This document shows, in pieces, positions 10,643-43,014 of a stretch of DNA of 64,000 nucleotides. This DNA comes from Heterodontus francisci. Its lineage: Eukaryota. The stretch is from assembly GCF_036365525.1 (NCBI RefSeq), contig NC_090383.1, forward strand, positions 111,788,531-111,852,530, read 5' to 3'. The translations under genes and the position numbers were made by a program. Under the pieces are notes generated by a model. The model ran no database searches. It had not been told where the DNA came from and saw only the letters and a program-made list of their open reading frames with translations. How positions within the stretch are numbered: the stretch's first letter is position 1; every line of letters begins with the position of its first letter.

Positions 10643-10786
10643 TCATTTCTTTACTGCTGTGAGTTTCAGTGCCCCCATCACAACGACTGCAGTCACTATA
10701 GAAGTTGCTAGAATGATCCATGGCAGTCTACCTTTGTTGAACGTCCTTGAACGGTTACGGCATTTTTCAGGTTTCTTTGCAGAGTA
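10643..10786 (-). CDS. SYNJ2BP/OMP25-like protein, last coding exon (linker + C-terminal TM anchor)
   Basis: Acceptor ttttattcctggcag, phase 0. Translates YSAKKPEKCRNRSRTFNKGRLPWIILATSIVTAVVVMGALKLTAVKK*: a hydrophobic helix flanked by basic residues. AATAAA directly follows the TGA. Confidence 0.82.
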   Translation of the reverse strand, partial: YSAKKPEKCRNRSRTFNKGRLPWIILATSIVTAVVVMGALKLTAVKK

Positions 10787-11359
10787 CTGCCAGGAATAAA
10801 AACAGGAAGTTAGGAAATCAGGGTACAAAACTGCTTTATTATTACTACATACATAAACTGGAACTAAACAGTAATAAATGATCAATTAGATGAGTGATTT
10901 GTTGTAAAATATGATTTGTTATAGTTTCACAGCCTTTAGGATTTCTGTGCAATCATGCAATACTCAGACAGCAAATTGTAAGACAGGTGGATAAAGGCAG
11001 AAATTTGCAGGATATCATACCACTCCACTTGTCCCAACACTCAACTGTATCAGGGCATTGAGGACTGGCAGGTTGATCAGACAGTAAAGGACACAGTTAT
11101 CACCATTAATTCAGTCTCATATCCTCAGCCCTCCAATACCACACAGACTGGGCTCATCGTTGCTATTCATTCATAGTTCTTGGTTCTGTTTCAGCCAGTA
11201 CCCTGTTTTTATGGTGCTGTGAAGCTTTTGAAAATGATTAACTGTGCTCAGAATTCAGGAGGAGACTTTTTAACTTGCCACTAATACCATGAAGCAAGTG
11301 ACTGCTGAAACCCTATCTTGGGCACCTGAAGAGGATTTTGGCTTTAACTAGTTTAGTAT

Positions 11360-12210
11360 AGAATCATCATGGTTAGAGCACAGAGGAGGACATTAGGCCT
11401 GTTGTGTCAGTGCCAGTTCTCTGCAAGAGCAAATCAGCTCATCCTGCTCCCCTGCCTTTTCTCAATAGCCCTGCACATTTTTCTATTCAGATAATTATCC
11501 AATTCACTTTTGAAAGCCAAGATTGAATCTGCCTCTACCACACTCACAGGCAGTGCAATCCAGATGCTGAACACTTGCTGTGTAAAAAAAGATTTTCTCG
11601 TGTCGCTTTTGGTTCTTTTTGCCAATCACCTCTAATCGGTATCCTCTGGTTCTCGATCCTTCCGCCAATGGGAACAGTTTCTCCCTACCTGTCCGAACCC
11701 ATTCAGATTTTGAATGCTCTATCAAATATCCACTCAACATTCTCGAAGGAAAACAGCCCAGCTTTTCCAATCTATCCACGTAACCTGGAACCATTCTCAT
11801 AAATCTTTTCTGCATTCTCTAAAGCCTTCACATCCTTCTCAAAGTGTGCTGCCCAGAATTGGACACAATACTCCAGTTGAGGGCAACACCAGTGTTTTAT
11901 AAAGGATCACCATAATTTTCTTGTATTTCTACTCTTAAGCCTCTATTTGTAAAGCAAAAGGATCCCACAACCCACACTTTCACAACCTGCCCTGCCACCT
12001 TCAACAATTTGTCCACATATACCCCCAGGTCCCTCTGCTCCTGCACCTCCTTGAGAACTGTATCCTTTATTTTATATTGTCCTTCCGACCAAAATGTATC
12101 ACTTTGGCTGCGTTAACTTTCATCTGCCACGTGTCCACCCATTCCACCAGCCTGTTTATGTCCTTTTTAAATCTATGGCTATTCTCCTCACAGTTCACAA
12201 TACTTCCAAG
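11360..12210 (-). mobile_element. CR1 LINE 3' fragment
   Basis: QKRFMRMVPG..RLEKLG, REKLFPLAEGSRTRG and FFTQQV motifs. Confidence 0.85.
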
Positions 12211-12235
12211 TATACTACAACATTATAATCTTGGT

Positions 12236-14487
12236 TGCTTTAAGTGCTACGGATGTTAACTTGCTGGGGGCTTTCTTGCAGTTCAACAGTGCAACTGTTG
12301 CACTGTTGAACTAATAGAAAGCCCCAGCGAGTTAACATCCATAGCACTTAAAGCAGCCAGAAGTGCTGCACAAAGAACAGCCAGGCGCTGCACAAATGAC
12401 TACTGGCAACATCTATGCAGTTGTATTCAGCTGGCCTCCAACACTGGAAACATTAGAGGAATGTATGATGGCATTAAGAGAGCTTTTGGGCCAACCATCA
12501 AGAAGATCGCACCCCCCACCCACCCCCCCCCACCCTCAAATCCAAATCAGGGGACACAATCACTGACCAACGCAAGCAAATAGACCGCTGGGTGGAGCAC
12601 TACCTAGAACTGTACTCCAGGGAAAATGTTGTCACTGAGAACGCCCTCAAGGCAGCCGAGTCTCTGCCAGTCATGGATGAGCTGAATATACAGCCAACAA
12701 AATCGGAAGTCAGTGATGCCATTGATTCTCTAGCCAGCGGAAAAGCCCCTGGGAAGGACGGCATTACCCCTGAAATAATCAAGAGTGCCAAGCCTGCTAT
12801 GCTTTCAGCACTCTATGAACTGCTTTGCCTGTGCTGGGATGAGGGAGCAGTACCACAGGACATGCGCGATGCCAATATCATCACCCTCGATAAGAACAAG
12901 GGTGACCGCGGTGACTGCAACAACTACCGTGGAATCTCCCTGCTCAGCATAGTGGGGAAAGTCTACGCTCAAGTCGCTTTAAACAGGCTCCAGAAGCTGG
13001 CTGAGCGTGTCTACTCTGAGGCACAGTGTGGCTTTCGAGCAGAGAGATCCACCATTGACATGCTGTTCGCCCTTCGCCAGCTACAGGAGAAATGTTGCGA
13101 ACAACAGATGCCCCTCTACGTTGCTTTCATTGATCTCACCAAAGCCTTTGACCTCATCAGCAGACATGGTCTCTTCAGACTACTAGAAAAGATCGGATGT
13201 CCACCAAAGCTACTAAGTATCATCAGATCATTCCATGACAATATGAAAGGCACAATTCAGCATAGCGGCGCCTCATCAGACCCCTTTCCTATCCTGAGTG
13301 GCGTGAAACAGGGCTGTGTTTTCGCACCTACACTGTTTGGGATCTTCTTCTTCCTGCTGCTCTCACATGCGTTCAAGTCTTCAGAAGAAGGAATTTTCCT
13401 CCACACAAGATCAGGTGGCAGGTTGTTCAACCTTGCCCGTCTAAGAGCGAAGACCAAAGTACGGAAAGTCCTCATCAGGGAATTCCTCTTTGCTAACGAT
13501 GCTGCATTAACATCTCACACTGAAGAGTGTCTGCAGAGACTCATCGACAGGATTGCGGCTGCCTGCAATGAATTTGGCCTAACCATTAGCCTCAAGAAAA
13601 CGAACATCATGGGACAGGACGTCAGAAATGCTCCATCCATCAATATCGGCGACCACGCTCTGGAAGTGGTTCAAGAGTTCACCTACCTAGGCTCAACTAT
13701 CACCAGTAATCTGTCTCTCGATGCAGAAATCAACATGTGCATGGGAAAGGTTTCCGCTGCTGTGTCCAGACTGGCCAAGAGAGTGTGGGAAAATGGCGCA
13801 CTGACACAGAACACAAAAGTCCGAGTGTATCAAGCCTGTGTCCTCAGTACCTTGCTCTACGGCAGTGAGGCCTGGACAACATATGTCAGCCAAGAGCGAC
13901 ATCTCAATTCATTCCATCTTCCTTGCCTCCAGAGAATCCTTGGCATCAGGTGGCAGGACCGTATCTCCAACACAGAAGTCCTCGAGGCGGCCAACATCCC
14001 CAGCACGTACACCCTATTGAGTCAGCAGCGCTTGAGGTGGCTTGGCCATGTGAGCCGCATGGAAGATGGCAGGATCCCCAAGGACACATTGTACAGCGAG
14101 CTCGTCACTCGTATCAGACCCACCGGGTGTCCATATCTCTGCTTTAAAGACGTCTGCAAACGTGACATGAAGTTCTGTGACATTGATCACAAGTCGTGGG
14201 AGTCAGTTGCCAGTGATCGCCAGAGCTGGCTGACAGCCATAAAGGCGGGGCTAAAGTGTGGCGAGTCAAAGAGACTGAGCAGTTGGCAGGAAAAAAGACA
14301 GAAGCGCAAGGGGAGAGCCAACTGTGTAACAGCTCCGACAACCAACTTTATCTGCAGCACCTGTGGAAGAGTCTGTCACTCTAGAATTGGCCTTTATAGC
14401 CACTCCAGGCACTGCATCACAAACCACTGACCACCTCCAGGTGCTTACCCATTGTCTCTCGAGACAAGGAAGCCAAAGAAGAAGATG
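12236..14487 (+). mobile_element. RTE-clade LINE, 5'-truncated, with a 612-aa RT ORF (12592-14430)
   Basis: RT motifs NYRGISLLS, QCGFR, FIDLTKAFD, GVKQGC and FAND (FADD with D>N). C-terminal CxxC..H zinc finger and a GAA-repeat tail. 11-bp TSD ATAATCTTGGT at 12225-12235 / 14488-14498. Confidence 0.95.
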
Positions 14488-15254
14488 ATAATCTTGGTAT
14501 TTGATGCAACAGTTCTCAAACACATTCAATATTTTATATAATAATGCTCAAGTAGGAATGTGTTACAGGGAAAGACTTCAATCTGATGTCATCTTATTGT
14601 AGAAGAGTGAAACCTCAGCATTTTCTGAATATCAATGGAACTGACTGAATTTCTGTATTAAGCTGTCTCCTAAAGCCCCTCACAATGACTCAGCTACGGT
14701 AAGTGCACCAATGTGGAATTAACCTTTACAGAATCAGAAGATTCTAATCTAAACAAATTTAGAATCTAATTCTAAACTAGCTAATCTCAGCAAGGACGGT
14801 ACTGGGCTTGGCTGTGATGCCCTCTTTTGTAGGTAGACCTAGAGGGTCAGTGTCCAGATTTAGATGTGAAGGGGGTGAAATGTACCTGGAGCATGAGTGC
14901 AAATAGGTGATCGGGAATCGGCAGCTCGTTTTACACTCCGCCCAATTTTCTTTGTCATTAACCTTAGTGTTCAGCAGCCAGCTGATATGTAATCACCTGT
15001 TTTGTGCTACTGTGCCCACCCCTGAAGATTGAGTGAGGCAATCAGCACATGTGGAACCTATATAAGCATAAATTAGTCTATATAGGATAGAAAATGGGAG
15101 TTGGAATAAATAAAAATTAAGGCTAGGTCTGTTGATCATGTGTTGCTGCTCCTAGGTTTAACCTTTCTTCATTATATTCAATGGGGTTTTTCACCACATT
15201 TAAGAGTTTTAGACAAGTACACATTTTTAGAACAACAAAGAACACCTTTCTGAA

Positions 15255-15690
15255 AACGTAATATAGGAAGAGGACCAGGCTATTCAATCCTCGAGCCTGT
15301 CTAGTATTCAGTTGTAACATGGCTGATCTGTACCTCAACTCCTTATCCCTCAATACCTTTACGCAACAAAAATCTATTGGTCAGTTTTGAAAGCTCTAGT
15401 TGTCCCAGCCTCACAGCCTTTTGGGGGGAAAAATTCCAGATTTCTATTACACTTTGTGTGGAAAAGTGCTTCCTGATTTCCCTCCTAAATGAACTTGCTC
15501 TAATTTTGTTATATTTCCTTATCACCAGATGAAGTAGTTTCTTATCTACCCTATCCAAATCATTTTAACATTTTGAATACCTCAATAAGATTATTCCTCA
15601 ATATTCTCTACTTAAAGAAATATAAGTCAAGTTTATGCAACCTGTCCTCATAATTTAAACCTCTAAGCTTCGCGATCACTCTGGTCTGGA
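15255..15690 (-). mobile_element. Degenerate CR1 3' fragment
   Basis: FRREIRKHFSTQSVIEIWN motif and CR1 tail. Confidence 0.75.
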
Positions 15691-17275
15691 TGCACACACA
15701 CATTTTAAATCCTGTGGTATTGTTCAAGGTAAGTCAGAGGATATGCTGCTTTATAAGGATGGGGGTTTTATACCACACAAAACAAAATGTATTATTCTGT
15801 CACTGTTGAGCTGTATCTATTTGTTAAGTAAATACAAGGTGAAATTACTGAGTTTAATTGTAGTGTGGTCAGGGAACTTGAAAAATTGTAAAGTGCTCGT
15901 CAGCTCTGGATCCAGGTCAGGAGCACCTAGCATGATGTAACTGCCTCTTTTTTTCTCTCTTTTTGTAAGTTTGTTTGCATCTGTAATAAAGTCTGCAGTG
16001 TAATTTCTGCATATATTGTTTTTAATATATTGTAGATAGATGGGAACCTCTAGAATTCCCTAAACGCCTCTGCCTCACTTTCCTCCTTTAAGACAATCTT
16101 TAAAACCTACCTCTTTGACTAATCTGCCCGAGCATCCACTTATGTGGCTGGGTGTCATATTTTGTATTATAATGCCCCTGTGAATGTTAAGTTAAACGTG
16201 CTATATAAATACAAGTTGTTGTTTTCTCTTGGGTTCAACAGTACAATGCGATCTCTATCACGTTTTAATACATGGGAAGATATTTGAATGACCTGCCAGA
16301 GTTGTGGCACCTTCCATTCAGATGTTGAACACACTTCATCGCCAAACTCATATCCAACCTGAAAAACATCATATGAATAGTTTAATAAAAGTTTAGCCTC
16401 AGAAATCTGCACACAATGGGTTGCCTATTAGTGTGTCGTTGAAGAAAATTGATGAGCACAGGCCCTGCTTTCCACATGGAATAAGATAACAAGGAGTCTC
16501 CTTGGTTTGCTGTGACAAACCTCCTTGTTGCTAATTTCAATGCTAAGACAGCATCACCTACTCACTCTCCGCGAGGCCCGAGAAAAGAAAAAGTGTCAAA
16601 AGAAAAGGGGGTTGTTCATTGTCAAAAAAAAGGTTTCTTTCTCTTCGTAATGTCCATTACCTTTGCTTCTAAAATACTCTGGGATCATCTCCTGACCAGT
16701 TGCTGTGTAGGCAATCTACAAGCTTTGCGAAATATATAACCAAGGAGAACAGATTGAAACCAGTGGCACAGGGAAGGCAGAATCTAAAAATGGCAAAATC
16801 TGTCCCTGAGCAGTTTCTTTATGAAAGTGTCTCTATAAAAGGACATGCATACACACTACTCTATTACTAAAATTGCATATGCAAAAAAAAGAGTACCATT
16901 ATACATTTGTTTTAATTTATGCAGAATTTTACATTAATTTCCATGTTGGTGGAGGTGCCACATGTTTTGTTTGCATGTAATTGAATACAATTGATCTATT
17001 GGCATAGTTGATCAGGGTGTTCAGGGGCTAACCTATCTTGTTCTGATGGGAGTTGTTTTGGGTTGCTGTGCTTTTGGTGCCGGGGGCAGCGGGAAGGGGT
17101 GGTGTGAGAAATGGGATGGAGCTTGTTTGCCTTCTTGTAAAGCACCTGCTCCTTCCTCTATTGGAATGTGCTAAGGTCCTTACTAATGTTACACAAGATC
17201 ATTTGCTCTAGCTGACTTTAACGACAAACATCTATCACAAAGAATGATTTCATGTTTTTTTGAATTGTTCCTTAC

Positions 17276-17374
17276 CTGCCTCTCGATTTGTAATACTAAC
17301 TCGCCATTGGTTATATTCCTAAATATTTTTGCTGCTTCCTCATGAAGTATATTAACAAGTGAAACTCCATCAGC
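17276..17374 (-). CDS. SYNJ2BP/OMP25-like protein, coding exon 3 (PDZ alpha-B/beta-F)
   Basis: Acceptor tttatctttag, 99 nt phase 0/0, donor CAG|GTAAGG. Translates ADGVSLVNILHEEAAKIFRNITNGELVLQIERQ, with the class-I PDZ His at the start of alpha-B. Confidence 0.9.
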
Positions 17375-17979
17375 CTAAAGATAAATAGATCAAAATAGAT
17401 ACAATAAAGCAGCAGTGCAGTTGGAAGTGATCTATTTATAATGAAAGCATGGATGGGGACTAGCACACTGTCCTTTCACATTTAGAATGTAGATTCAAAT
17501 GTAGCCCAGACAGAAGACAAAAGTTTCCTTTCTCTGTCTATATGCTTTTCCTCTTCCTCACTGAAGAACTCATTCTTCAACACTGTGAAAATCATTACCT
17601 CCTTCAGTTTCTCCTTATTCCTACAATTTTCAGCATTTAAACCCTGAGCTTGGCATCATCTAATTAGTTGTTCTTTCTTTAACTTGTCTTTTAATCTCTT
17701 CAGCCTTGGTTGTGTCATATCTTGATGGCTGAGCTCAAAATGGCCATCCAATGCCTTCTAAGCACCCTGCCACGAGCTAGAGTGAGAAACATCATAATAC
17801 GTAACCATGGTTTCAAATAACAATTGGAGGAAGCTTGTAGTGCCAACATCCTTGTGGATAAATTCCTAAATTATGATGGTTTCTAGGATGTCCCATAATT
17901 GTGCCATTGACAAGGTGAAAAAGTTAATTTTCACCAGCACAAATAACGTTTACACCGGCATAGCTAAGCATTTATTAAA

Positions 17980-18345
17980 CATTCGCTCCATCCACCACTG
18001 GCACACAGTGGCAGCAGTGTGTACCATCTACAAAATGCACTGCAGCAACTTTCCAAGGCTCCTTTGACTGCAGCTTCCAAACCCTCAACCTCTACCACTT
18101 GCAACAGGGGCAGCAGGCGCATGAAAACACCACCACCTGCAAGTTCTCCTCCAGGTCACACACCATCCTGACTTGGAAATATATCGCCATTCCTTCATCA
18201 CCACTGGTCAAAATCCTGGAACTCCCTACCTAACAGCAGTGTGTGTGTATCTACACCATGTGGACTGCAGTGACTCACCACCACCTCTGAAGGGCAATTA
18301 GGGATGGTCCTTGCCAGCGACGCCCACATCCCATGAATGAATTAA
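17980..18345 (+). mobile_element. 3' fragment of the 32865-type LINE
   Basis: HHWHTVAAVCTIYKMHCSN motif and tail. Confidence 0.78.
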
Positions 18346-18604
18346 AACTTGTTTTCTAACCATTTAACCCACTAACTGCCTCTCTTGTTCAATCCTCTAA
18401 ACAGACTCACATCTTCGAGTGCTGACAAAGATTTACACCTTAAATATTAACCTGTTCTTTCAGATGCTGGGAGACCAATGTATATTTCCAGGATTTTGTT
18501 TAGATTTGCAGCTTTTTTTTTCTTCATTGCCCAAAGTAACATGATCCATAATTCCAAAAAAACCCAATTCATTGTTTTTAATTAGAACATTTGCAACAAC
18601 ATAC

Positions 18605-18741
18605 CTCCAAGATCTTGTCACCCTCTCTAAGTCTCCCATCAAGAGCTGCTGGTTCATTTTCTCTTATTTTAGCCACATAGATTCCAAAATTTCCAGGATA
18701 ACAGGGTTTATCCACTCCTCCCAAGATGTTAAACCCAAACC
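18605..18741 (-). CDS. SYNJ2BP/OMP25-like protein, coding exon 2 (PDZ core)
   Basis: Acceptor tttacag, 137 nt, donor GAG|GTATGT. Translates (G)[45 protein letters not shown]: GFGF carboxylate loop and AALDGRL.EGDKIL as in recalled SYNJ2BP. Confidence 0.92.
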
Positions 18742-18911
18742 CTGTAAATGGGTATCAAGCATGAATCCAAATCAAAATGATATTAAACGCTATTATGTAC
18801 AATAGAACTTTTTTATGATAATCTTGTCTGCATTGGAGATAGCCATTATCATCTGTTTATACCATTAAGGCAAATGAAATGAAATTGCCAAAAATCATGG
18901 GGCAGTTATTG

Positions 18912-19275
18912 AGTACGGTGGTGTAGTGGTTATGTTACTGGACTAATAACCCAGAGAATGTTTGTTCAAATTTCACAATGGCAGTTTAAAAATTTGAATT
19001 CTGTTGAAATCTGGTCAGTAAAAGTGACCATGAGGTTGTCGGCTTGTTGTGAAAACTCAGCTGGTTCACGAATGTTCTTGCGGTAAGGAAATTTACCGTC
19101 CTTTACCCAGTGATTCCAGTCCCACATCAAGGTGGTCAACTGTTAACTGCCTCTTAAAAGAGGGAGAAATGGTCTCGGTCTAAGCTCCTGCTAGACTCCG
19201 CAATCAGTTCAACTAGTGATGGGTAATAACTGCCAGTCTTGCCAGCAACACCCACTTCCAAAGGATGATTTTTAA
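18912..19275 (+). mobile_element. Diverged copy of the same SINE family
   Basis: GGTGGTGTAGTGGTTATGTTACTGGACTA head, degenerate core and tail. Confidence 0.55.
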
Positions 19276-19602
19276 AAAAGATTTGCCGGGAAAATGTGAA
19301 AATTGCTCTCTAATCAAAGAATTGTTACAGCGCAGAAGGAGGCCATTCAGCTCATCGTGTCTGCACCAGCTCTCCAAATGAGCAATTCACCTAACACCAT
19401 TCCCACCTTCTCCCGTAACTCTGCACATTCTTCCTTTTCAAATGACAGATTAGTTCCCTACCGAAGGGCCTTAATTGAACCTGCCTCCACCACACTCTCA
19501 CGCAGTGCATTCCAGACCTTAACCACTTGCTGCACGAAAAAGTTTTTCCTCATGTCACGTTTGCTTCCCTCGCCAACCTAGGGCAATTGGTGAAAATGCA
19601 AA

Positions 19603-20420
19603 GGGCTGAATTTTACCAGCTCCTTGATGTCAAGGGTCGCGGCATGGAGCCTGTAAAATACTTACGGGTGAAGCCTGCCACGACCTCCGACACGGAGAAG
19701 GCCCCGCCGCATTTTATTGGCGGTGGTGGCAAGGCACCCCCCTCCCCCCCCCCCCCGCCCGACTGCTGCTTCATTTGCCTACTCAAACATATTCAAAAAA
19801 ATGTTAATTAACTTATCTGGACCAGGCGGCCGTCCCACGCCAATATTGCAGCTGGTGACTGGAAGTCACACACCTTCTGAACCCCGTTTGGGGATTCAAG
19901 GCGAGACACTGGTGGGGAGAGAGGAGGGGTGATATTATCAGGACAGGAGGGGAGCGGGTAAACTACTTTCTATTGGCTGTGGGGATGGTGAGAAGGGATT
20001 GACGGGCAAATATGACAAGGTTGCGGGGGTTGGGGAAGAGTTCAGATTGGGAATGAAATAAATTATCAACATATAGGCCAATAAAAAAAACAGTGGGGGA
20101 GGGGGGGTGGTTAGGAAAGAGCCTCCAGCTTTTAATTACTTTTTTTAAAGATGTTTCACAGAAATGTCCCTTTAAAAATTCACAATTCACTTTGTTCCCA
20201 AGGGCTTGAAGCCCTTTAAAAATGGCGCCGGCACCTGCGCAGTGGCACTGGGCGCAGCTGCCAGGGACGAAATGGCTGCCCCCTATATGACATCAGAGGC
20301 GGCCGTTCCGCCCCCTCCATTTAAAAGAGCCCCCGCGCGAAAAATCACAGGGGCTCAGCGGCAGTGCATCCGTGCCTGTAGGCTGCCGACTTCAAAGCGT
20401 ACCACCATAAAATTCAGTCC
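19603..20420. mobile_element. Non-autonomous DNA transposon (MITE-like) with terminal inverted repeats
   Basis: GGGCTGAATTTTA at the left end, TAAAATTCAGTCC at the right end; GC/CpG-rich non-coding interior. Confidence 0.65.
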
Positions 20421-20654
20421 AGGGTATTAGGTGGTTAAGTGGAACATCGGAACAGGTGCAGGCTATTCAGCCTGTTCCACCAATCAATCAGATCATGACT
20501 GATCTGTATGGTGCAAATGGTGATACTTGGGGCACTTGGACTGGATGCTATATTTTTGCAGATGTCAGTCAGCCCCGGACCATTTCTCCCTTCACCATAC
20601 CTCAATTTTAAACACTATTATGTTCTGAAGTGCTGCCGTTGTGTTTCTCTTCAC

Positions 20655-20992
20655 CCAGCACTGAGGGAGTGCTGCACTGTTGGAGGTGCCATCTTTCGAA
20701 AGGGACGTTAAACTGAGGGCCCCATCTGCCTGCTCAAGTGGCTGTAAAAGATCCCATGGCACTACTTCAAAGAGGGGCAGGGGTATCCTGGTCAATATTT
20801 ATCCCTCAACATCACAAAAACAGATTATCTGGTCAATATCAAATTGCTGTTGGTGGTAGTTTGCTGTGTGCACAGTTTCTGACGTGTTTCCTGCATTACA
20901 ACAATGACTACACTTCAAAAAGGACTTTATTGGCTGTAAAGCACTTTGAGGTGTGCAGTAGTGTGGAAGGTGCTATATAAGTGCAAGTCTTT
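20655..20992 (+). mobile_element. Deu-domain SINE fragment
   Basis: Deu core and GGTGCTATATAAGTGCAAG tail. Confidence 0.7.
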
Positions 20993-22140
20993 CCTTTTCC
21001 TTTTCATTTTCCAGCTGGCTTTCATTTAACACTGAAGAAAGTTTCCAGCTAGCTATCTTAACAACTGCTTTTACATTCAGCAAGCACTCAGTTCATTGGT
21101 GTTGCTTAAAATTTGTCTAAATTAAAATGCTGGCTTCTATTCAAAAACTAATTCACTACAAACAATTACTTTGTCACTCTTGCATTACGAGACCAGCCTT
21201 TCTCATGCATCAAACCTGCATGACCTCATTTTCATGTATCTTCTGTTCAATTATTAGAAAGAAAATGCTTGCATTTACCTAACACCTTATCACCTCCTCG
21301 GGCTGTTCCAAAATGTCTCACGACAAATTACTTTCGAAATGTAGCACTGTTAGATTTGCAACCCAAAAGTCATGATTTAAAATTCTACATGACAGATATA
21401 ATTCAATAAACCTGGTAATTTGTGGTCTAACACAAATCCATCTGGTTCACTAATACGTATCCTTCAGGAAGGGGAATATGTCACTCCCACTTGTTGTGCT
21501 TACATATGTCTCCACTCGCACACTTCATTGTTGATTCTTAATGGCCTCGGGCAAAATAGGATTGGACAATACTGCCTTTCCAGTGCTGCTGATATCCTAA
21601 GAACAATGTATGGCATGAGGCTGACTCCCCCTAAGGTACTAGGTGTGAGGCTGGTGCATGCCAGAATCTTTCTCCCACAACAATTAACCTGTTTTGTTTG
21701 AAATTCATTTCATAACTTGGTCTTGGATTTCACAAATAGTCAGTTGAAACAGGTTTATAATTCAACATGCAGTGAAATGATACCTAATCCCTTAATTTCA
21801 AATTATCAGGGTGGGGGGAAACGGCAGGGGGAGGGTGAAGAACATGCTGATATGGAATGAATTGGCGCATGATGAACTGCTTCTGTTTGGAGTGTACAGA
21901 ATGTGATAGATTGGAGTGTGTTTCAAGGATGTAACAGATCTGAGTTCCAATAATATTGAAAGACCACTCAGTTCATGACACAGATGTCATCTGAACCATT
22001 CAACATTTTACTGCCTTCTACATCCTCTGTCCTATTATTAGAAAGAGCAAACTTGCATTTATTTACCACATCCTCATTACCAACAATTAGTAAAATATAT
22101 GGTGATATAATTTATCCCCCTCTCCTCTTCTGAGGTCATT

Positions 22141-22268
22141 GGGGGTGAAATTCAATTTCGGCAGGGGGGCAGAAAAGGGCGGTTATTGGAAAGGAAAATG
22201 GAGTGGATTTATAATGGGATACCAACCCTCCCATCACTTGTTTGTGCCCTAAAGTTGAATTTCATCCC
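22141..22268. mobile_element. Small MITE-like element
   Basis: GGGGGTGAAATTCAATT ... AAGTTGAATTTCATCCC imperfect terminal inverted repeats. Confidence 0.5.
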
Positions 22269-22614
22269 TATAGCACCTGTTGTTGTATGATTCTAAAGGC
22301 ACAAGTCACCTTCACTTACCTCACCAAACTGGCCATTATTCCTTTGTAAACCTAAACAGTTGAGCGTTGGCATGCTATTTGGCTGTGGAGACACCAGAAC
22401 CAAATTCGATCTTGTCGTCATCTGACATCTCCAGACTGTGGTGATCACTGGCGGTGGTCACTGAATAATTAATAAGAGCGGGATCCATGATTGGATTTCT
22501 TCTCCTAAGCCCAGGGGTAATGGGCTCAACTGCCACTTAGGCTGTTTTCAGCTAACTTGGCACAGTTCAGGAATTAAATGGGGGGGCTTTCTGATCTGTA
22601 AGCTCATTTACATT

Positions 22615-23018
22615 TTTCATTTGTTTGTGGGACGTGGGCATCGCTGGCTAGACCAGCATTTATTGCCCATCCCTAATTGCCCTTGAACTGAGTGGCTTGC
22701 TAGGCCATTTCAGAGGGCATTTTTTTTTTTTATAAAAGAGTCAACCACATATTACTGTGGGTCTGGAGTCACATGTAGGCCAGACCAGGTAAGGACAGCA
22801 GATTTCCTTCCCTAAAGGACATTAGTGAACCAGCTGGCTTTTTACAACAATTGACAATGGTTTCATGGTCACCATTAGACTAGCTTTTTAAATTCCCAGA
22901 TTAATTGAATTAAAATTTCGCCATCTGCCATGGTGGAATTCGAACTCATATCCCCAGAGCAGTAGTCTGGGTCTCTGAGTTACTAGTCCAGTGACATTGC
23001 CACTATACCACCACCTCC
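22615..23018 (-). mobile_element. tRNA-derived SINE with SlmI/Meta-like core and CR1/L2-type tail
   Basis: Core GGTTCACTAATGTCCTTTAGGGAAGGAAATCTGC..CCTTACCTGGTCTGGCCTACATGTGACTCCAGA. Tail AAGGGCAATTAGGGATGGGCAATAAATGCTGG is shared with the LINE at 32865. Confidence 0.7.
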
Positions 23019-25925
23019 ATGCTGCTTTTATCAACTGAGCCACAGACTGTATTCACCCACCTCTGTCTCTTCGGCCCTCCCTACTTCCAGGAAACCACAA
23101 AATTGATAATTAAATATGGAAAAAAATAAATCACATTCTTTAATATTACGGAAAACACTCTGGAGATACAGGGGTATAAATGTCTTGGGTACTTGCACAA
23201 AGTGGAGGATAGCAATCGGCAGCCTATTTTGTGAGCTACTTGATTTTCATTTCTATTCACAGGAGGGGTGGCTCTGTTAATTAATGATGGTATTAGCACA
23301 ATAGAGAGGGATGACCTAAGTTCAGGAAACCAGGATGTAGAAGTGGTTTGGGTCGAGATGAGAAGTCACTTGTGGGAGTGGTGTATAAGCCCCCTAACAG
23401 TAACCACATGGTAGGATGCGATATATAGGAATAAATAATGGGAGCTTGTCAGACAGGTACGGCAATAATCATGGTGGATTTTAATCTACATACAGACCAG
23501 AAAAATCAGATGGGCAAAGGTGAGGAATTCATAGAATGTTTGTTTTTGGGATAGTTTCTTAGAACAGCACATTCTGGAGCCAACCAGAGAACAGGCTATA
23601 CTAGACTGGGTATTGTGCAATGAGACAGGATTAATGACCTCAGAGAAGGTGCCCCTAGTCAGCAGCGATCATAATATGACTGAATTTTACATTCAGTTTG
23701 TGGGAGAGAAGAATGGGTCTAAGACTAGTATCTTAAACTTAAATAAAGGCAATTATGAGGGCATGAAAGCAGAACTAGCAAAAGTGAACTGGCAAAGTAG
23801 GTTAAGGGATAGGTCAATAGAGATGCAGTGGCAGACATTTAAGGGGATATTTCAGAATACACAGAATAGATACATTCTAATGAGAAAGAAAAATTCCAAG
23901 GGGAGGACTAAAAAAGTTAACGATCGTATCAAACTTAAAGAAAAAGCATATATTTGTGCAAAGATGAGTGGCAGTTCAGAAGATTGAACAGAATATAAAA
24001 AGCAGCAAAGAATGACGAAAAGATTAATAATGAGAGAAAAATTAAAGTCTGAAAGAAAGCTGGCTAGAAATACAAAAACAGATAGTAAGAGTTTCTATAG
24101 ATATTTAAAAAAGAAAAGGGTTAACATAGTGAGTGTTGGTCCTATAGAAAGTGAGTCTGGGGAATTAATAAAGTAAAATAAGGAGATGGCAGATGAACTG
24201 AGCAGGTATTTTGCATCAGTCTTCACCATAGAGGATACAAGTAACAAACCAGAAAAAGCTGTAAATCAGGAAATGGAAGGGAGGGAGGAACTCAAGAATA
24301 TTACAATCACCAGGGAAGTGGTACTGAGCAAATTGTTGGAGCTGTGGGCTGACAAGGTCCAGGATCCTGATGGACTTCACCTGAGGGTCTTAAAAGAAGT
24401 GGCTACTGAAATAGTTGATAAGTCGATTTAAATTTTCCAAAATTCCCAGATTCGAGAAGGTTCCATTCCATTGGAAAATAGCCAATGTAACTCCTTTATT
24501 CAAAAAGAGAGGGAGACAGAAAGCAGGAAACTACAGGCCAGTTAGCTTAACACCTGTCTTAGGGAACATTTTAGAAGCTATTATTAAAGACATTATAGCA
24601 AGGCACTTCGAAATAGTCAAGGTAATCAGGCAGAGTCAACATGGTTTTGTGAAAGGGAAATTAGTTTAACCAATTTATTGGAGTTCTTTGAAGAAGTTAC
24701 ATGTGCTGTGGATAAAGGGGAACCAGTGGATGTACTGTACTAAGATGTCTAGAAGCATTTGATAAGGTGCCACATCAAAGGTTCTTGTGGAAAAGCTCAT
24801 GATGTAGGGGCTAACATAGTGGCATGGATAGAAGATTGTCTAGCTCACAGGAAACAGAAAGTAGGCATAAATGGATAATTTTCTGGTTGGCAAGATGCTG
24901 CAGCCTCATCTTTTTCTAATTTATATAAATGACTTGGATGAAGGGACCACAGGTATGGTTGTTGATGACACAAAAGATAGGTAGGAAAGTAAGTTGTGAA
25001 GAGGACTTAAAGAAGTTACGACAGGATATAGATAGGTTAAGAGAATGGGCAAAGATCTGGCAATAGAATGTAATGTGGGAAAATGTGAAATTGTCCATTT
25101 TGGCAGGAAGAATTAAAAAGCATATTATCTAAATGGTGAGAGATTGCAGAGCTATCTGGGTGTCCTCGTGCATGAATCGCAAAAGGTTAGCATGCAGGTA
25201 CAGCAAGTAATTAGGAAAGAAGCTAATAGACTGTTATTGTTTATCGCGAGGGGAATTGAATACAAAGCAGGGAGGTTATGCTTCAGTTATACAGGGCATT
25301 GGTGAGGCCACATCTGGAGTACTGTGTACAGTACTGGTCTCTTTATTTAAGAAAGGATGTAAATGCATTGGAAGCAGTTCAGAGAAGGTTTACTAGACTA
25401 ATACCTGGAATGGGAGGGTTGTCTAATGAGGAAAAGTTGGATAGGCGAGGCTTGCATCTGCTGGAGTTTAGAAGAGTAAGAGGCGCCTTGATTGAAACAT
25501 AAAAGATTCTGAGGGGTCTTGACAGGGTGGATGTGAAAAGAATGTTTCCTCTTGTGGGAGAATCTAGAACAAGGGGCCATTATTTAAAGATCCATTTAAG
25601 ACAAAGATAAGGAGACATTTTTTTCTCTGAGGGATGAGTGTCTTTGGAACTCTCTTCCTCAAAAGGTGGTGGAAGCAGAGTAGAATCACAGAAAAATTAC
25701 GGCACAGAAGGAGGCCATTCAGCCCATCGTATCCGTGCCGGCTGAAAAAACAAGCCGCCCAATCTAATCCCATCTTCCAGCACCTGGTCCATAGCCATGC
25801 AGGTTACAGCACTTCGGTTGCATGTCCAGGTACCTTTTATGAGTGTTCAGGGTTTCTGCCTCCACCACTGTACCTGGCAGTGAATTCTAGACACCCACCA
25901 CCCTCTGAGTGAGAAGTTTTTTCTC

Positions 25926-27656
25926 AGACCTGTTAGCCTTACATCAGTTGTCAGGAAAATGCTAGAATCTATTCTAAAGGATGTGATAAATGGACACTTG
26001 GATAATAATGATCTGATTGGGCATAGTGAACATGGATTTATGAATGGGAAATCATGTTTGACAAACCTGTTGGGAGTTTTTTGAGGATGTTACTAACAGA
26101 ATTGATAAAGAGGAGTCAGTGGATGTGGTATACTTGGATTTTCAGAAGGCTTTTGATAAAGTTCCCCACAGGAGATTGGTTAGCAAAATTAAAGTACATG
26201 GGATAGGAGGTAGTATACTGGCATGGATTAAGGATTGGTTAAACAGGCAGAAAGCAGATAGTAGTAATAAATAGGTCATTCTCGCATTGGCAGGCTGTGA
26301 CAATTGGGCTACCGCAGGGATCAGTGCTTGGGCCCCAGCTGTTCACAATATATATCAATGATCTGGATGTGGGGACCAAATGTAATATTTCCAAGTTCGC
26401 GGATGACACAGAACTAGGTGAGAATGTGTGTTGTGAGGAAGATGCAAAGTGGCTTAAGGAGATTGGGACAGACTTAGTGAGTGGGCAAAAATGCGGCAGA
26501 TGGAATATAATGTGGGAAAATGTGAGGTTATCTACTTTGGAAGGAGGAACAGATGTGCAGAGTATTTCTTAGATGGGAAGCGATTAGAAAGTGTAGATGT
26601 TTAGAGTTTAGAGAGATACAGCACTGAAACAGGCCCTTCGGCCCACCGAGTCTGTGCCGACCATCAACCACCCATTTATACTAATCCTACTCTAATTCCA
26701 TATTCTTACCACATCCCCACCTGTCCCTATATTTCCCTACCACCTACCTATACTAGGGACAATTGCTAATAGCCAATTTACCTATCAACCTGCAAGTCTT
26801 TGGCATGTGGGAGGAAACCGGAGCACCCGGAGAAAACCCACGCAGACACAGGGAGAACTTGCAAACTCCACACAGGCAGTACCCAGAATTGAACCCGGGT
26901 CGCTGGAGCTGTGAGGCTGCGGTGCTAACCACTGCACCACTGTACAAAGGGACCTTTGTGTCCTGTCAATAAGTCACTGAAAGCTAACATGCAGGTGCAG
27001 CAAGCAATTAGGAAGGTTAATGGTATGTTAGCCTTTATCGCAAGAGGATTTAAGTACAGGAGTAGTGAAGTCTTGCTTCAATTGTATAGAACCTTGGTTA
27101 GACAGCACCTGGAGTACTGTGTGCAGTTTTGGTCTCCTTACTTTAGGAAGGATATTATTGCCACAGAGGGAGTGCAACGAAGGTTCACTATTCTTGTTCC
27201 CAGGTTGACGGGTCTGTTCTATGAAGAGAGATTGGGGAAACTGAGCCTGTATTCTCTAGAGTTTCAAAGAATGAGAGGTGATCTCATTGAAACCTACAAA
27301 ATACTTAAAGGGAAAGACAGGGTAGATGCAGGTAAGATGTTTCCCCTGGTTGGGGAGTCTAGAAGCAGGGGACACAATTTCAAAATAAGGGGGAAGCCAC
27401 TCAGGACAGAAATGAGGAGAAATTTCTTTACTCGGAGGGTTGTGAATCTTTGGAATTCTCTACTCCAGAGGGCTGTGGAAACTCAGTCATTGAGCATGTT
27501 TAAAGCAGAGGTTGACAGATTTCTAAATACCAATGACATAAAAGGATATGAGGATAGTGTGGGGAAAAAGGCATTGAAGTGGATGATCAGCCATGATCGT
27601 ATTGAATGGCGGGACAGGCTCGATGGGCTGAATGGCCTACTCCTGCTCCAATGTTC
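25926..27656 (+). mobile_element. CR1 RT/3' fragment nested in the minus CR1
   Basis: [25 protein letters not shown] and a 237-aa C-terminal ORF. Same subfamily as 35925-37880. Confidence 0.88.
26601..26943 (-). mobile_element. HE1-type V-SINE nested in a CR1
   Basis: Reverse complement of the same SINE. It interrupts the CR1 at GTAGATGT|ACAAAG (uninterrupted in the sister copy near 37161). Confidence 0.9.
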
Positions 27657-28359
27657 ATGTCCCCTCTAATCTTTCTACCAATCACCTTAAATCTGTGCCC
27701 CCGGTAATTGGCCTCTCTGTTAGGACAGCTCCTTCCTGTTTACTCTATCTCATAATTTTGTACACCTCAATTAAGTCACCCCTCAGCCTCCTAAGGAAAA
27801 CAACCCTAGCCGATCCAATCCCCAACTATTATTGCCCGAAGAGTCTTTGAATTTTTTTAAGGCAGAGGTAGATAGATTCTTGATAAGCAAAGGAGTGAAA
27901 GGTTATTGGGCTTAGGCGGGAATGTGGGGTTGAGTTTACAATCAGATCAGCCATGATCTTGTTGAATGGTGGAGCAGGCTCAAGGGGACGAGTGGCCTAC
28001 TCCTGCTCCTAATTCATATGTTCGTATGTTCACTTCAATTTCTAACCTATAATCATAAAATTCAATCTAAAATCAAGTCCAAGAGAAAGCTTCTTCACAA
28101 AAAGGGTTGTGACTATGGGGAATGTATTGACCTAGATAACCATTGCTGCAAAATCAATTAGATGCATCCTGGGGAAGTAACAGCATTGACAAATATGAAT
28201 AAAGGGCAGTGAACTGGGATTAACAAAATGGTGAAACAGGCTTGAAGGGGTGAAAAGCCTACTTCTGTTTCAAAGCAGTAATAGCTCATAGCTCAGATGA
28301 TATTGACAAAATGCTTTGTAGAATTACAGAACGTTATACCAGAGGGTTTTTAAAAATTA

Positions 28360-28835
28360 ATTCATTTGATACGGGTGTCACTGGCTAGGCCAGCATTTAT
28401 TGCCCATCCCTAATTGCCCTTGAGAAGGTGATAGTGAGCTGCCTTCTTGAACCACTGCAGTCCATGTGGGGTAGGTCCACCCGGTTTCATTTCTTATTGA
28501 CCTTGTCGCGGTTTGACACAACTGAGTGGCTTGCTAGGCCATTTCAGAGGGCATTTAAGAGTCAACCACATTGCTGTGGGTCTGGAGTCACATGTAGGCC
28601 AGACCAGGTAAGAACAGATTTCTTTCCCTAAAGGACATTAGTGAACCAGACAGGTTTTTACAACAATTGACAATGGTTTCATGGACATTAGACTAGCTTT
28701 TTAATTCCAGATTTATTAATTGAATTCAAATTCCACCTTCTGCTGTGGTGGGATTCAAACCCAAGTCCTCAGAGCAATACCCTGGGTCTCTGGGTTACTC
28801 ATCCAGTGACATTACCACTAGGGCACTGCCTCCCC
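28360..28835 (-). mobile_element. Same SINE family with a longer LINE-derived tail
   Basis: Same core and head; the tail extends about 110 bp into the partner LINE 3' end. Confidence 0.7.
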
Positions 28836-29863
28836 GGTAGGCTATTTAGCCCATCAAGTCTGGCGCTAGTGTTGTTCTCCACATGAATAGATTAGGAAGT
28901 TCAACAGCTTGTATTTATGTCTTTAATGTACTAAAGCATCCCAAGGCTTCACAGGAACATTACCAAACACAATTTGAAGAGCCATATAATGAGATATCAG
29001 GGTTGATAACCATAAGCTTGGTCAAAGAGGTCGTGTCTTAAAGGCAGAAAGAGAACTAGCAAAGCAAAGAACTTTAGGAAGGGAATTCCATAACTTTGGG
29101 CCTTGGCAACTGAAGGCATAGCCATCAAACCAGGGATGCTCAAGAGGGCAAACTTGGAGGAGTGCAGATATCATGGAGGTTTGTAGGGCTGGAGAAGATT
29201 ACAGAGATAGGGAAGGGTGAGGTCATGGGAGGGAGTTGAAATTTTAAAATGATGCATTGCTTAACCAGAAGCCAATACAGGCCAGCGAGCACAGGGGTGA
29301 TGAGGGAATGGGACTTGATGCGAATTAGGACACGCGCAACAAAGTTTTGGATGACCTCAAGTTTATGGAGGGTAAACTTCCCAGACCATTTAAATGTTCC
29401 TCTTTTTCAGGCAACTATCTAATTGCCTTTAAACAGACTTTACAGATATTGCTTCAATACTGGCATGTGGCAGCAACTTTAAAATTCTAACCACACTATA
29501 TAAAGATATTTTAACTCCTACCCAAGAACACAAGAAATAGAAGCAGGACTAGACCATATGGCCCATCAAGCTTGCTCCAACGTTCAATACGATCATGGCT
29601 GATCTTAAACTTCAGCTCCACTTTCCCGCCCACTCGCCATATCCCTTGATTCCCTGAGACACCAAAAATCTGTCTATCCCAGCCTTAAACGTATTAAATG
29701 ATGGAGTATCCACAACCCTCTGGGGTGGTGAATTCCAAAGTTTCACAGCCCTTTGATTGAAGTAATTTCTCCTCAACTCGGTCCTAAATGATCAGCCCCT
29801 TATCACGAGACTGTGTCCCTGTGTTTTAGATTCCTCGACCAATCTCTGAGTGTTTACCCTACA

Positions 29864-30824
29864 TGTCAAATGGGAAATATTAATTTCATCGGCTGGAATT
29901 TTGCCTTTTACTGGAAATTCTTACAAATAACTTAAAAAAAATAATAAACTGACAGCCAAGATGGCCACTGCAATTTACATTTGAAACACCAAAGGAGACA
30001 ACACGACTGACTCAACCTAGCCAGAATAATGGGATGCTCACTGATTAAATTACCTGGGATGGCCTTATCAACATGGTCATCAGGGGCTATCGACACCCAT
30101 TGACCTTGAAAGAGCCAACCCCCAAGTGTGACCGGACAGCTTGAGGGATAGAGCCTTGAATCTGAGAAGATTCCAGAAGGACCTCATTAACAGCACAAAG
30201 AGGTTTGGTAATGTCATGTGACTGCTTGTGCAGCTCTGGGAAGACTGTAAGCTTTATCACACAGAAAGCAGACAAAAGTAACTGAAAAAACCATCACGAA
30301 GCAGTTCTCGTTCTCTCTCTCTCCAGTCAAACCGCCACAGCCAGCAACTAGGGGACAAGAATCGAACCCCTCTTCTGCCTACAGAAGCCCTGAGAAAAGC
30401 AAGCCCATCACAGTGCACGTGGCCCAGCTAGGACTTCTGGAATACAATTTCAGCTGAGGACTTGAGATTTAAAATTGTATTTAAATTCAATTTATTCCAG
30501 ACTCTACTCCAACCACCAAAGCGGTTTTCCCTCTGTAATCTATTTGTGTGTTTGTGTGTGTGTGAGACTCGTGTGAATGCGTAGCATATTTTAGTAATTT
30601 TAACTGGTTTAGAGTGTTAAGAATAATAAACTTTCATCTTTCTTGTTTAAACTCAAGAAAACCTGTCTGATTGGTTCTTTTGCAATTACATTAGAGGACC
30701 AGGAGCAAGCGCTCACTGAGTCGGTAAGTTCAATCCTATGTTAAAAAGGAATAAACCCTTGGGGTCAAACCAGAGAAGGGGCAAAAAGGGGAGCCTGAGT
30801 CTCCCTCCTCACCTGGCTGTAACA
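29864..30824 (+). mobile_element. Probable solo LTR inserted in a minus-strand CR1 fragment (29525-30880)
   Basis: Begins TGT and ends ACA, has internal AATAAA and a (TG)n tract, and interrupts a CR1 that resumes on the far side. No clear TSD. Confidence 0.55.
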
Positions 30825-31304
30825 AGCCCCTTCAGAATCTTGTATGTTTGAATGAGATCACTTCTCATTCTCCAAACTCCTGAGAATTTGGCCCAAAATA
30901 CTAGCTTCAATATGAAGCCTTTATATGATGTAACCATTAGTATATTTGTATCATTATTCCATGGTGTAAAATTCCTTTCATTATGAAATAGCATATCATC
31001 CAACTGAATGTGATGCTGCATAAAACTCCCTTGTACATGTAATTAAAGCTTGAACTTTAGCTTGGGTCTGTAAGTAAAATGGCCAGCGCATCTCAAAAGT
31101 GGCTGGGCATCAGACCTCAAAAGGAGGATTGGCTCACGTTCATCAGAAACTCAGTGTCACAGGCTGTGGTTATAATTTAGGACTGAGACACATTTGGGCA
31201 TATTTTTCATGAGATAATGAGAACAACTCCAAAACAGACAGGTGTGCTTACTTGTTTTACACAGGATTTAATATAGATCATTCCAGACACTTAAACATGT
31301 AATC

Positions 31305-31610
31305 CAGGCTGACCTTCAGTGCAGTATGGACGGAATGCTGCACTGCTGGAGGCACCATTTCTGATGAGAAGTCAAACCAAGACCCTGTCTGCCCTCTCAG
31401 GTGGAGGTAAAACATGTCATGGCATTACTCTCCCTGGTGTCCTGGCCAATTTTTATCCCTCAACCATTAACTGGTCATTATCTCGTTGCAATTTCTTGGG
31501 AACATTTTTCCACATTACAACAGTGGCTACACTTTAAAAGTACATCATTGACTATTAAAGGCTTTGGAGCGTCCCCGAGATGGTGAAATACGCTATTAAT
31601 ATGCAAGTTC
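31305..31610 (+). mobile_element. Degenerate Deu-domain SINE
   Basis: Diverged match to the 20655-20992 copy. Confidence 0.55.
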
Positions 31611-31863
31611 TAAACTTTAGACTAAACCTCCTCCTCAGTCAAGACAGCCTTGTGAGGATAGAATACTGGTGTTAGAACTCAACCCGTCTATGGCCTCAAC
31701 ACGGCGCAAATATTTAAAACACTGTGAAAAATGGCAAGTTTTGAAATGTTGGATGCACGTTAGCACTCCAGTACTGCTAATCCAAGATATAGACAGGCTT
31801 GGTCACACGTAACAACTTATATCTTCTTTCCGAACTGTGCACTGAGGATGCCAGAGTTTCTCT

Positions 31864-32049
31864 AAAATAAAAGCAAAATACTGCGGATGCTGGAAATCTG
31901 AAATTAAAAACAAGAAATGCTGGAACCACTCAGCAGGTCTGGCAGCATCTGTGGAAAGATGAAGGGTCACTGACCCGAAACGTTAACTCTGCTTCTCTTT
32001 CCACAGATGCTGCCAGAACTGCGGAGTGGTTACAGCATTTCTTGTTTTT
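31864..32049. mobile_element. Inverted (tail-to-tail) pair of Penelope terminal-repeat fragments
   Basis: A minus copy followed by a plus copy of the same 3' end. 16-bp TSD ATGCCAGAGTTTCTCT at 31848-31863 and 32050-32065. Confidence 0.9.
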
Positions 32050-32071
32050 ATGCCAGAGTTTCTCTGCTGAC

Positions 32072-32150
32072 CTGCATTTCCTCTTTTCAATACGATGATA
32101 TGAGATTCCGTTTTTACGCAGGGCCTGTTCCTCCTGCCCTTTATCACCAT
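32072..32150 (-). CDS. SYNJ2BP/OMP25-like PDZ tail-anchored protein, coding exon 1
   Basis: ATG at 32150 with in-frame TAA TAA upstream. Translates MVIKGRRNRPCVKTESHIIVLKRGNA(G), i.e. PDZ beta-A strand plus KRG. Phase-1 donor CAG|GTCAGC matches the phase of exon 2. Confidence 0.75.
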
Positions 32151-32169: not shown

Positions 32170-32420
32170 CCACCGCTGTTGTCACACGTCAGAAAGACAC
32201 ATTATTACGTCTCTCCTGCTCTGACACTCATTAAAACGCCATCGTCACGGCAGCTTCCCCATGATCATTCAAAATGAAAAGGGGCGAGAGACAGAAAATA
32301 AAATCACCTCCTGGTGGGTCGGATTGGTTTTCCTCCACTTAGCCGGTACATAACCGGAACTGAGAAACTGACCCGAATTTGGCTTATTGTAACCAAGCGA
32401 TTTAGCTTCAAACTGGGGAT
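32170..32420 (-). promoter_or_regulatory. Probable promoter / 5'UTR region of the SYNJ2BP-like gene, possibly with a short 5'UTR intron (~32177-32307)
   Basis: Local CpG enrichment, ETS-like CCGGAA near 32354, CCAAT-type ATTGG near 32323. A GAG|GTGATT donor and a ...gacaacag acceptor lie upstream of the ATG. Confidence 0.4.
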
Positions 32421-42934: not shown

Positions 42935-43014
42935 CTAGAAAAAGAAAACCAACATTACACCACCTTTGCCTAATTTTTTTGTGGCTGTTGTAAGCGACAC
43001 TTTAAAAAAAAAAC

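Follow-up and report, generated by a model that had tools for sequence, protein, structure and literature searches.

A second, intact SYNJ2BP gene of cartilaginous fishes, a likely 1R ohnologue, is predicted to encode a tail-anchored PDZ adaptor

Our preferred reading of a 64,000-nt stretch of the Heterodontus francisci genome (contig NC_090383.1, positions 111,788,531 to 111,852,530; hereafter the window) is that cartilaginous fishes have a second SYNJ2BP gene, intact and spliced, which it carries. This gene encodes a predicted tail-anchored PDZ adaptor and is likely an ohnologue of the first vertebrate genome duplication (1R) that was likely lost in bony vertebrates. We assign this reading a probability of about 0.7. 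An initial annotation of the same DNA had proposed a second, diverged SYNJ2BP derived from the early genome duplications; the second copy stands, since a separate SYNJ2BP gene exists on C9, but the status of ohnologue is likely rather than established.

Splice sites and reading frame confirmed the four minus-strand exons originally proposed. These exons, of 79, 137, 99 and 144 nt, are bounded by GT donors and AG acceptors and join in phases 1, 0 and 0 into an open frame of 152 aa. They are real, but the proposed model overlooked a fifth exon, the cassette exon of Table 1, which was included in contigs from 4 of 4 runs; the main isoform comprises five exons and encodes a 174-aa protein. The contigs are of RNA type, although none of the listed runs is recorded as RNA, and they drop rare variants. 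Exon 3 was joined to the cassette exon in all four runs, from two studies (joint 16356/17274, CT..AC), whereas the direct join of exons 3 and 4 in the initial annotation was absent from these contigs; models from other sharks do contain it (P0008, P0029, P0003, P0004). The loose ends of the exon 3/cassette contigs read into exons 2 and 4, and the 3′ UTR was extended by contigs to 10474. The join of exons 1 and 2 is supported by RefSeq model P0022 and not by reads. Contrary to the description of the gene as hidden, that model (XP_067901529, 174 aa, 'DLG1-like') already represents it in RefSeq, matching all five exons letter for letter within the exon bounds. The paralogue retains all three ancestral introns, with phases 1, 0 and 0 in both shark genes, and exon 2 of the canonical gene on C9 has the same length (137 nt) and phases; an origin as a retrocopy is thus ruled out.

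Table 1. Location of the features described, in positions of the window
Feature	Position	Strand	Description
DESI2-type gene, first coding exon	8246..8284	-	downstream neighbour; further exons in left flank
Last coding exon	10643..10786	-	144 nt; basic linker, hydrophobic segment (~10717-10661), short basic tail, stop
LINE-like element	12478..14430	+	650-aa open frame inside last intron; very high contig depth
Cassette exon	16293..16358	-	66 nt; 22-aa linker; AG..GT; in frame
Exon 3	17276..17374	-	99 nt; betaE, alphaB, betaF
Exon 2	18605..18741	-	137 nt; GFGF loop, betaB-betaD; covered by RNA-type contigs
Coding exon 1	32072..32150	-	79 nt; start codon to first PDZ strand; phase-1 donor; residues 1-26 of RefSeq P0022
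Candidate alternative first exon	32356..32424	-	tblastn; 78% like N-terminus of Heptranchias isoform X1 (P0028)
ARV1	42684..49869	-	Pfam; upstream neighbour, same strand as paralogue

The neighbours named in the initial annotation were recovered to different degrees. ARV1 was identified by Pfam and a DESI-type gene, probably DESI2 and not DESI1, extends into the left flank; TTC13 was seen only as one TPR exon on the plus strand of the right flank, and its exon 1 gave no Pfam match. The LINE-like frame presumably encodes an RT, judging by its motifs.

Only two loci of SYNJ2BP type were present among the genome matches, at C9:95.41 Mb and C13:111.81 Mb, the latter being the gene in the window; the next-best matches were DLG-type exons (five checked). 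The C9 locus is a canonical four-exon SYNJ2BP, separate from the C13 copy, and lies in the order SMOC-type gene (93.26 Mb), COX16 (93.78), SYNJ2BP (95.41), MED6 (95.60), pecanex (96.69) and RGS-type gene (98.67), which matches human 14q24.2. COX16 is 1.63 Mb away on the opposite strand, and linkage to COX16, MED6 and PCNX1 belongs to the C9 gene and not to the C13 paralogue. The separate COX16-linked SYNJ2BP that the initial annotation had suggested looking for was therefore found. In Callorhinchus, a protein of the paralogue type is the one that NCBI names plain SYNJ2BP, and no canonical chimaera SYNJ2BP was among the matches listed, which would suit the idea that the C13 gene is a translocated sole SYNJ2BP, or else a silent pseudogene. 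The four-exon gene on C9 refutes a translocated sole orthologue for this genome. Spliced contigs from two studies, and a frame that proved undisturbed in related sharks and a skate (10 proteins of 9 species have it intact together with the anchor), speak against a pseudogene, and we find either version scarcely credible.

Two further genes of C13, which represents 2.0% of the assembly, have counterparts on C9: ADSS (109.5 Mb) and a gene of RGS6/7 type (100.9 Mb). When six families with a C9 copy were tested, two had a partner on C13, three on C3 (pecanex, IRF2BP, presenilin) and one showed none. The claim that the region is paralogous to a 14q24-like one is thus backed by the ADSS and RGS6/7-type pairs, but three families link C9 to C3, including the pecanex pair cited in its favour, whose partner is not on C13 in this genome. 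Exon-level searches, whose results are floors, found no C9 or C13 match for LURAP (LURAP/FAM89 search) and no C13 copy of SMOC. The paralogy of C13 and C9 holds at chromosome scale only, the immediate neighbours being without C9 counterparts shown. In the skate study, SI Table 3 sets LER9 (1alpha) against 'LER5 or LER8' (2alpha/2beta) for linkage group A1, and Desi2 is on skate 8 (PMC10115646). Skate LE03433 'Synj2', two numbers from Ttc13, was considered as a mislabelled paralogue and rejected: it has synaptojanin Pfam domains, and the horn shark has a synaptojanin of its own at C13:47.1 Mb.

Exon 2 scored above the Pfam PDZ cut-off (E 3.8e-7). The predicted model showed high pLDDT over the PDZ domain, with SYNJ2BP as its best PDB match (2JIK, rmsd 1.2 Å over 94 columns), and the alphaB1 His (His83) and alphaB8 Phe were invariant across 56 sequences. 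These features could also belong to an independent gene in which a DLG PDZ2 module joined a tail-anchor exon and converged on the SYNJ2BP layout. Introns 1 and 2 lie at the exon bounds of DLG PDZ2. Specificity to the SYNJ2BP family is thus confined to intron 3 and the tail exon, and only these uphold the proposal that the intron positions are a SYNJ2BP hallmark. The betaB/betaC loop, described as altered, does differ from that of SYNJ2BP, but it is free of indels and DLG PDZ2 has a similar P-G-D/N-N part, so the difference is not necessarily derived; in addition, RefSeq names several isoforms 'DLG-like'. Against a DLG origin, the anchor exon and the third intron are as in SYNJ2BP, the paralogue joined SYNJ2BP against DLG in two trees (99/98 in the first, 100/98 in the second), a PDB sequence search by single domain gave SYNJ2BP 81 bits versus at most 57 per DLG domain, and the top three ESM Atlas clusters were SYNJ2BP (0.94-0.96). 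We consider such convergence very improbable, and the identification as SYNJ2BP puts right misleading database names (DLG-like, ARV1 isoform).

Orthologues of the paralogue were found in 10 elasmobranchs and one chimaera. Among the 147 proteins compared, 25 were closer to the paralogue type, all of them chondrichthyan, and none was a bony-vertebrate member. No relatives outside cartilaginous fishes were among the matches listed in an exon-2 search (best 21 of 60 candidates) or a profile search (best 120 of 773 matches). A tail-only search of 1.84 billion representatives gave three matches, two from sharks and one in an unrelated repeat protein, and no cyclostome or invertebrate SYNJ2BP was among the matches retrieved. 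Taken together, these searches, two of which cover the best rows of longer lists, provide weak evidence of absence.

This distribution would also result if a DNA-level duplicate had arisen on the cartilaginous-fish stem after the bony-fish split, with a move to C13 and rapid divergence; in that case the paralogue would never have existed in bony vertebrates. Consistent with such a duplicate, the first of our two trees, both with DLG PDZ1/2 domains as the only outgroup, placed the paralogue as sister to the shark canonical gene (85/70); it included three rows whose N-termini are not homologous (P0003, P0030, P0044). The second tree, of 33 rows, from which these three and 14 others were excluded, nested the paralogue beside eel (98/87), an impossible placement that indicates a long-branch artefact. 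The AU test rejected neither 'all canonical together' (p 0.177) nor 'paralogue plus shark canonical' (p 0.199), and site patterns were 0/0/1 and 1/0/0 of 51 columns. Phylogeny therefore supports a second, diverged member of the SYNJ2BP clade, as initially proposed, but its placement is unstable and a duplication before the split of sharks and bony fishes is not established. The lack of local synteny between C13 and C9 likewise suits a stem duplicate, which would however require a chance landing in a region with C9 paralogues. Moreover, the paralogue is no closer to the shark canonical PDZ (51% identity) than to those of sturgeon (54%) and toad (51%); shark and bony canonical PDZs are 58-67% alike. 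The paralogue stem measures 1.3 changes per site, so a rate acceleration is needed whatever the dating. A stem duplicate would have to fit this change between the crown gnathostomes, at about 456 Ma (PMC10972751), and the chimaera split, and then slow to the canonical rate; horn shark and skate are 83% identical in both genes. Overall, we regard a stem duplicate as unlikely, though deserving consideration, and favour a 1R ohnologue.

At its C-terminus the paralogue has a hydrophobic segment and then a short basic tail; here the predicted model places a helix (151-172) at low confidence. The tails of 10 paralogue proteins had a mean hydropathy of 2.24 and a charge of +2.1, compared to 2.21 and +3.7 in the shark canonical gene; published mean tail charges are +1.12 for mitochondria, +2.5 for shared and +0.21 for ER (PMC5450235). 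Judged by its composition, the putative tail anchor is compatible with targeting to mitochondria or with shared targeting. It would insert post-translationally, in the outer membrane of mitochondria and perhaps in peroxisomes or the ER as well. The PDZ domain would then face the cytosol and may bind class I C-terminal motifs (S/T-X-hydrophobic), recruiting the bound proteins or the membranes that carry them. Its ligands are likely in part those of canonical SYNJ2BP and in part different. A GC donor 4 nt upstream of the cassette donor would yield the frameshifted, anchor-less RefSeq isoform X2 (P0001), a soluble PDZ-only form as in mouse SYNJ2BP, in which 2/3 variants are without the TMD (PMC7164261); both chimaera models of the paralogue also lack the anchor. 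A bolder scenario, which we find rather doubtful, is that two PDZ tethers with tail anchors existed in early vertebrates and that the copy lost in bony vertebrates served a different membrane (ER or peroxisome, in view of its less basic tail and more basic linker) and different ligands, was tuned by the cassette exon and the conserved anchor-removing donor, could be joined through read-through to ARV1, an ER protein, and maybe replaced the canonical gene in chimaera.

Among known systems, SYNJ2BP (OMP25, ARIP2; human, PDB 2JIK, 2ENO) has the same single PDZ domain and C-terminal anchor, with the alphaB His and Phe kept, anchor-less splice forms and, in human, the PDZ exon layout of the shark canonical gene. 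Among PDZ proteins it is unusual in being a transmembrane protein of mitochondria, which it tethers to the rough ER by way of RRBP1 (PMC5404927). The paralogue differs from human SYNJ2BP in its PDZ (~45% identity; GLGF to GFGF, alphaB5 Val to Ala, betaC Ser-Arg to Ala-Lys, a different loop of equal length), and further from SYNJ2BP in the extra 22-aa cassette exon, the more basic linker, the less basic tail, the locus and having been seen in cartilaginous fishes only. As a long-diverged pair kept in these fishes, the two genes offer a natural test of how ligands and membranes are divided in a duplicated tail-anchored adaptor. DLG1-4 PDZ1/PDZ2, the nearest other PDZ family, share introns 1 and 2 and a similar loop, but they belong to multi-domain soluble scaffolds without an anchor and form a separate clade in both trees. 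SYNJ2BP-COX16 read-through occurs in human, and was also seen in Centroberyx (P0116). RefSeq models in whale shark and zebra shark similarly fuse the paralogue to ARV1, although here the partner lies upstream and the fusion retains the anchor; the ARV1 exon-3 donor (44894) is in phase 1, so an in-frame splice to paralogue exon 2 is possible. No earlier description of the paralogue was found in the literature searched, and 'synj2bp' had 0 matches in the part of the PMC10115646 supplement searched. Differential ohnologue retention in sharks is already known, which limits the surprise: 19 genes were counted as ohnologues retained by chondrichthyans and lost in bony fishes, and wnt6b and cspg5 are named as retained ohnologues (PMC10115646). 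Unlike those genes, the paralogue has a duplication node that our trees do not fix; like them, it is a duplicate on a paralogous chromosome, present in sharks and skates and not found in bony vertebrates.

We conclude that the SYNJ2BP-type PDZ gene at 10643..32150 on the minus strand (hereafter the C13 gene, after the assembly sequence carrying the window) is a real, spliced and conserved SYNJ2BP paralogue. The initial annotation had positioned four exons correctly, with GT/AG sites, phases 1, 0, 0 and an open frame of 152 residues, but a fifth exon was missed. Nor is the gene hidden, as had been claimed: its sequence was already in RefSeq under other names, and the record P0022 (XP_067901529, "disks large homolog 1-like isoform X1", Heterodontus francisci) agrees with the window in every exon. 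A GC donor 4 nt upstream, shifting the frame and deleting the anchor, would account for RefSeq isoform X2; the Chiloscyllium and Scyliorhinus canicula models are frame-shifted at the same place, and this form was not seen in the contigs.

Exons of the C13 gene (window coordinates)
Feature	Position	Strand	Evidence
Exon 1	32150-32072	-	GT donor
Exon 2	18741-18605	-	AG acceptor, GT donor; passes Pfam PDZ cut-off
Exon 3	17374-17276	-	AG acceptor, GT donor
Fifth exon, between exon 3 and 10786-10643	16358-16293	-	match to P0022; contig joints
Last exon	10786-10643	-	AG acceptor

Splicing was supported by contigs of all four sequencing runs (two studies), which contained the joint between exon 3 and the fifth exon with intron-type ends; loose contig ends at this joint continue into exon 2 and the last exon, and one 763-nt contig covers exon 2 through the last exon with the spacing of the five-exon form. 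The runs are guessed to be RNA, and the coincidence of contig joints with splice sites speaks for this. The direct join of exon 3 to the last exon, originally proposed, was absent from the contigs of the four runs, which drop rare forms; the four-exon form appears in gene models of two catsharks, the whale shark and the zebra shark. At window position 17313, an A>G change present in contigs of all four runs, with both letters within one run, would convert Ile93 to Thr, just past helix alphaB.

ARV1 lies upstream of the C13 gene, on the same strand, and a DESI-type gene downstream; the proposed TTC13 is a plus-strand TPR gene beyond ARV1, consistent with TTC13 as a candidate name. ARV1 (49869) and the TTC13-like gene (about 50190) start head-to-head across a CpG-rich stretch, which suggests a shared promoter. 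In RefSeq models of the whale and zebra sharks, ARV1 residues 1-122 run in frame into the PDZ gene (P0003, P0004, P0023, P0025, P0026), and the horn shark ARV1 exon-3 donor (44894, phase 1) could be spliced to 18741 or to exon 1 in the same way. Near-identical LINE-like elements occupy 12478-14430, where contig depth is very high, and 58920-60338 (open frames of 650 and 472 aa). In the flank L048 (6595-6870; C13, about 111.95 Mb), a Pif1 helicase 2B-domain fragment probably derives from a Helitron-like element.

Two genome searches located SYNJ2BP-type exons only in the C13 gene and at C9:95.41 Mb, the next five matches in the first search being DLG-type exons. Identical DLG-type exons with equal scores at C48:1.60 Mb and on C580 are likely a duplicated haplotig. 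Like the C13 gene, the four-exon C9 gene has phases 1, 0, 0 and an exon 2 of 137 nt; it is surrounded by SMOC-type, COX16, MED6, pecanex and RGS-type genes, a set that matches the human 14q24.2 neighbourhood. A separate COX16-linked SYNJ2BP, the search for which had been suggested, therefore exists, and it refutes the reading of the C13 gene as a sole, translocated orthologue. COX16 is 1.63 Mb away (93.78 vs 95.41 Mb) on the opposite strand, hence non-adjacent, so that the SYNJ2BP-COX16 read-through of Centroberyx (P0116) cannot form in horn shark.

Two trees joined the C13-type gene to SYNJ2BP against DLG PDZ1/2 (99/98 and 100/98) and recovered it as one clade (100/100), in agreement with the second, diverged SYNJ2BP initially postulated. 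The clade's placement shifted from sister to the shark canonical gene (85/70) in one tree to beside eel, a long-branch artefact, in the other. AU tests rejected neither dating of the duplication, whether all canonical genes were held together (p 0.177) or the paralogue was placed with shark canonical (p 0.199), and site-pattern counts on its age were empty. PDZ identity of the C13 gene to canonical proteins is alike in shark (51%), sturgeon (54%) and toad (51%); horn shark and skate share 83% in both genes, and the C13-type stem measures 1.3 changes per site. Equal distance and a long stem are compatible with, though no proof of, an old split after which constraint was normal. We favour an ohnologue from the early vertebrate duplications, with a probability of about 0.7, and consider a duplicate arising in the shark stem rather unlikely.

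C13-type proteins occur in 10 elasmobranch species and Callorhinchus. In a paralogue-versus-canonical profile test, 25 of 147 stored proteins fell on the paralogue side, all chondrichthyan; frog "SYNJ2BP-like" matches are canonical. The best 120 of 773 profile-search matches held no relative outside chondrichthyans, and a tail-only search with the C13-type sequence gave three matches, of which two were from sharks and the third was an unrelated repeat protein. Judged from these searches, the gene was likely lost in bony vertebrates. The sole chimaera matches listed, Callorhinchus P0012 and P0034, are both paralogue-type models without the anchor, with no canonical SYNJ2BP among the matches listed, possibly through reciprocal loss or an annotation gap. 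Titles and abstract openings on SYNJ2BP paralogues or SYNJ2BP in sharks contained no description of this gene, and "synj2bp" was absent from the searched part of the skate supplement and 12 of 24 whale-shark supplement files.

Among six gene families represented on C9 (the names of individual members are putative), two had a C13 partner, ADSS (109.5 Mb, 2.3 Mb from the window) and an RGS6/7-type gene (100.9 Mb, 11 Mb away); three, pecanex, IRF2BP and presenilin, had a C3 partner instead, and one had neither. LURAP matched neither C9 nor C13. The C9 counterpart is therefore spread over C3 and C13: the proposed C9-C13 paralogy holds for the ADSS and RGS6/7-type pairs but not for pecanex (PCNX). 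As C13 makes up only 2.0% of the assembly, it is improbable, though conceivable, that a SYNJ2BP copy landed there by chance. A third adenylosuccinate synthetase gene, at C44:20.03-20.05 Mb near a pecanex gene, may be another retained ohnologue; humans have two. The ambiguity between C3 and C13 has a parallel in skate, where SI Table 3 sets group A1 on LER9 against "LER5 or LER8" and Desi2 is on chromosome 8 (PMC10115646). If C9 corresponds to LER9 and C13 to LER8, the SYNJ2BP pair would date from 1R, put at about 527 Ma (PMC10972751). The skate paper counts 19 ohnologues that chondrichthyans retain but bony fishes have lost (PMC10115646).

In the predicted model of the C13 protein, confidence is high over the PDZ domain (pLDDT of at least 90 for 83 residues) and low over linker and tail; in the PDB, human SYNJ2BP structures match it best. 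Helix alphaB carries His83 and Phe90, both invariant across 56 sequences; His at this position marks class I PDZ binding. Compared with human SYNJ2BP, GLGF is replaced by GFGF, alphaB5 Val by Ala and betaC Ser-Arg by Ala-Lys, making a shifted ligand range plausible. The GFGF change had been noted correctly. The betaB-betaC loop, described as altered, is of equal length and similar to that of DLG PDZ2. By analogy, the protein may act as an outer-membrane adaptor like SYNJ2BP (PMC5404927, PMC7164261). Its anchor resembles that of shark canonical in hydropathy (2.24 vs 2.21), whereas the linker is more basic and the tail less so (+2.1 vs +3.7), published mean tail charges being +1.12 for mitochondrial, +2.5 for shared mitochondrial/peroxisomal and +0.21 for ER proteins (PMC5450235).
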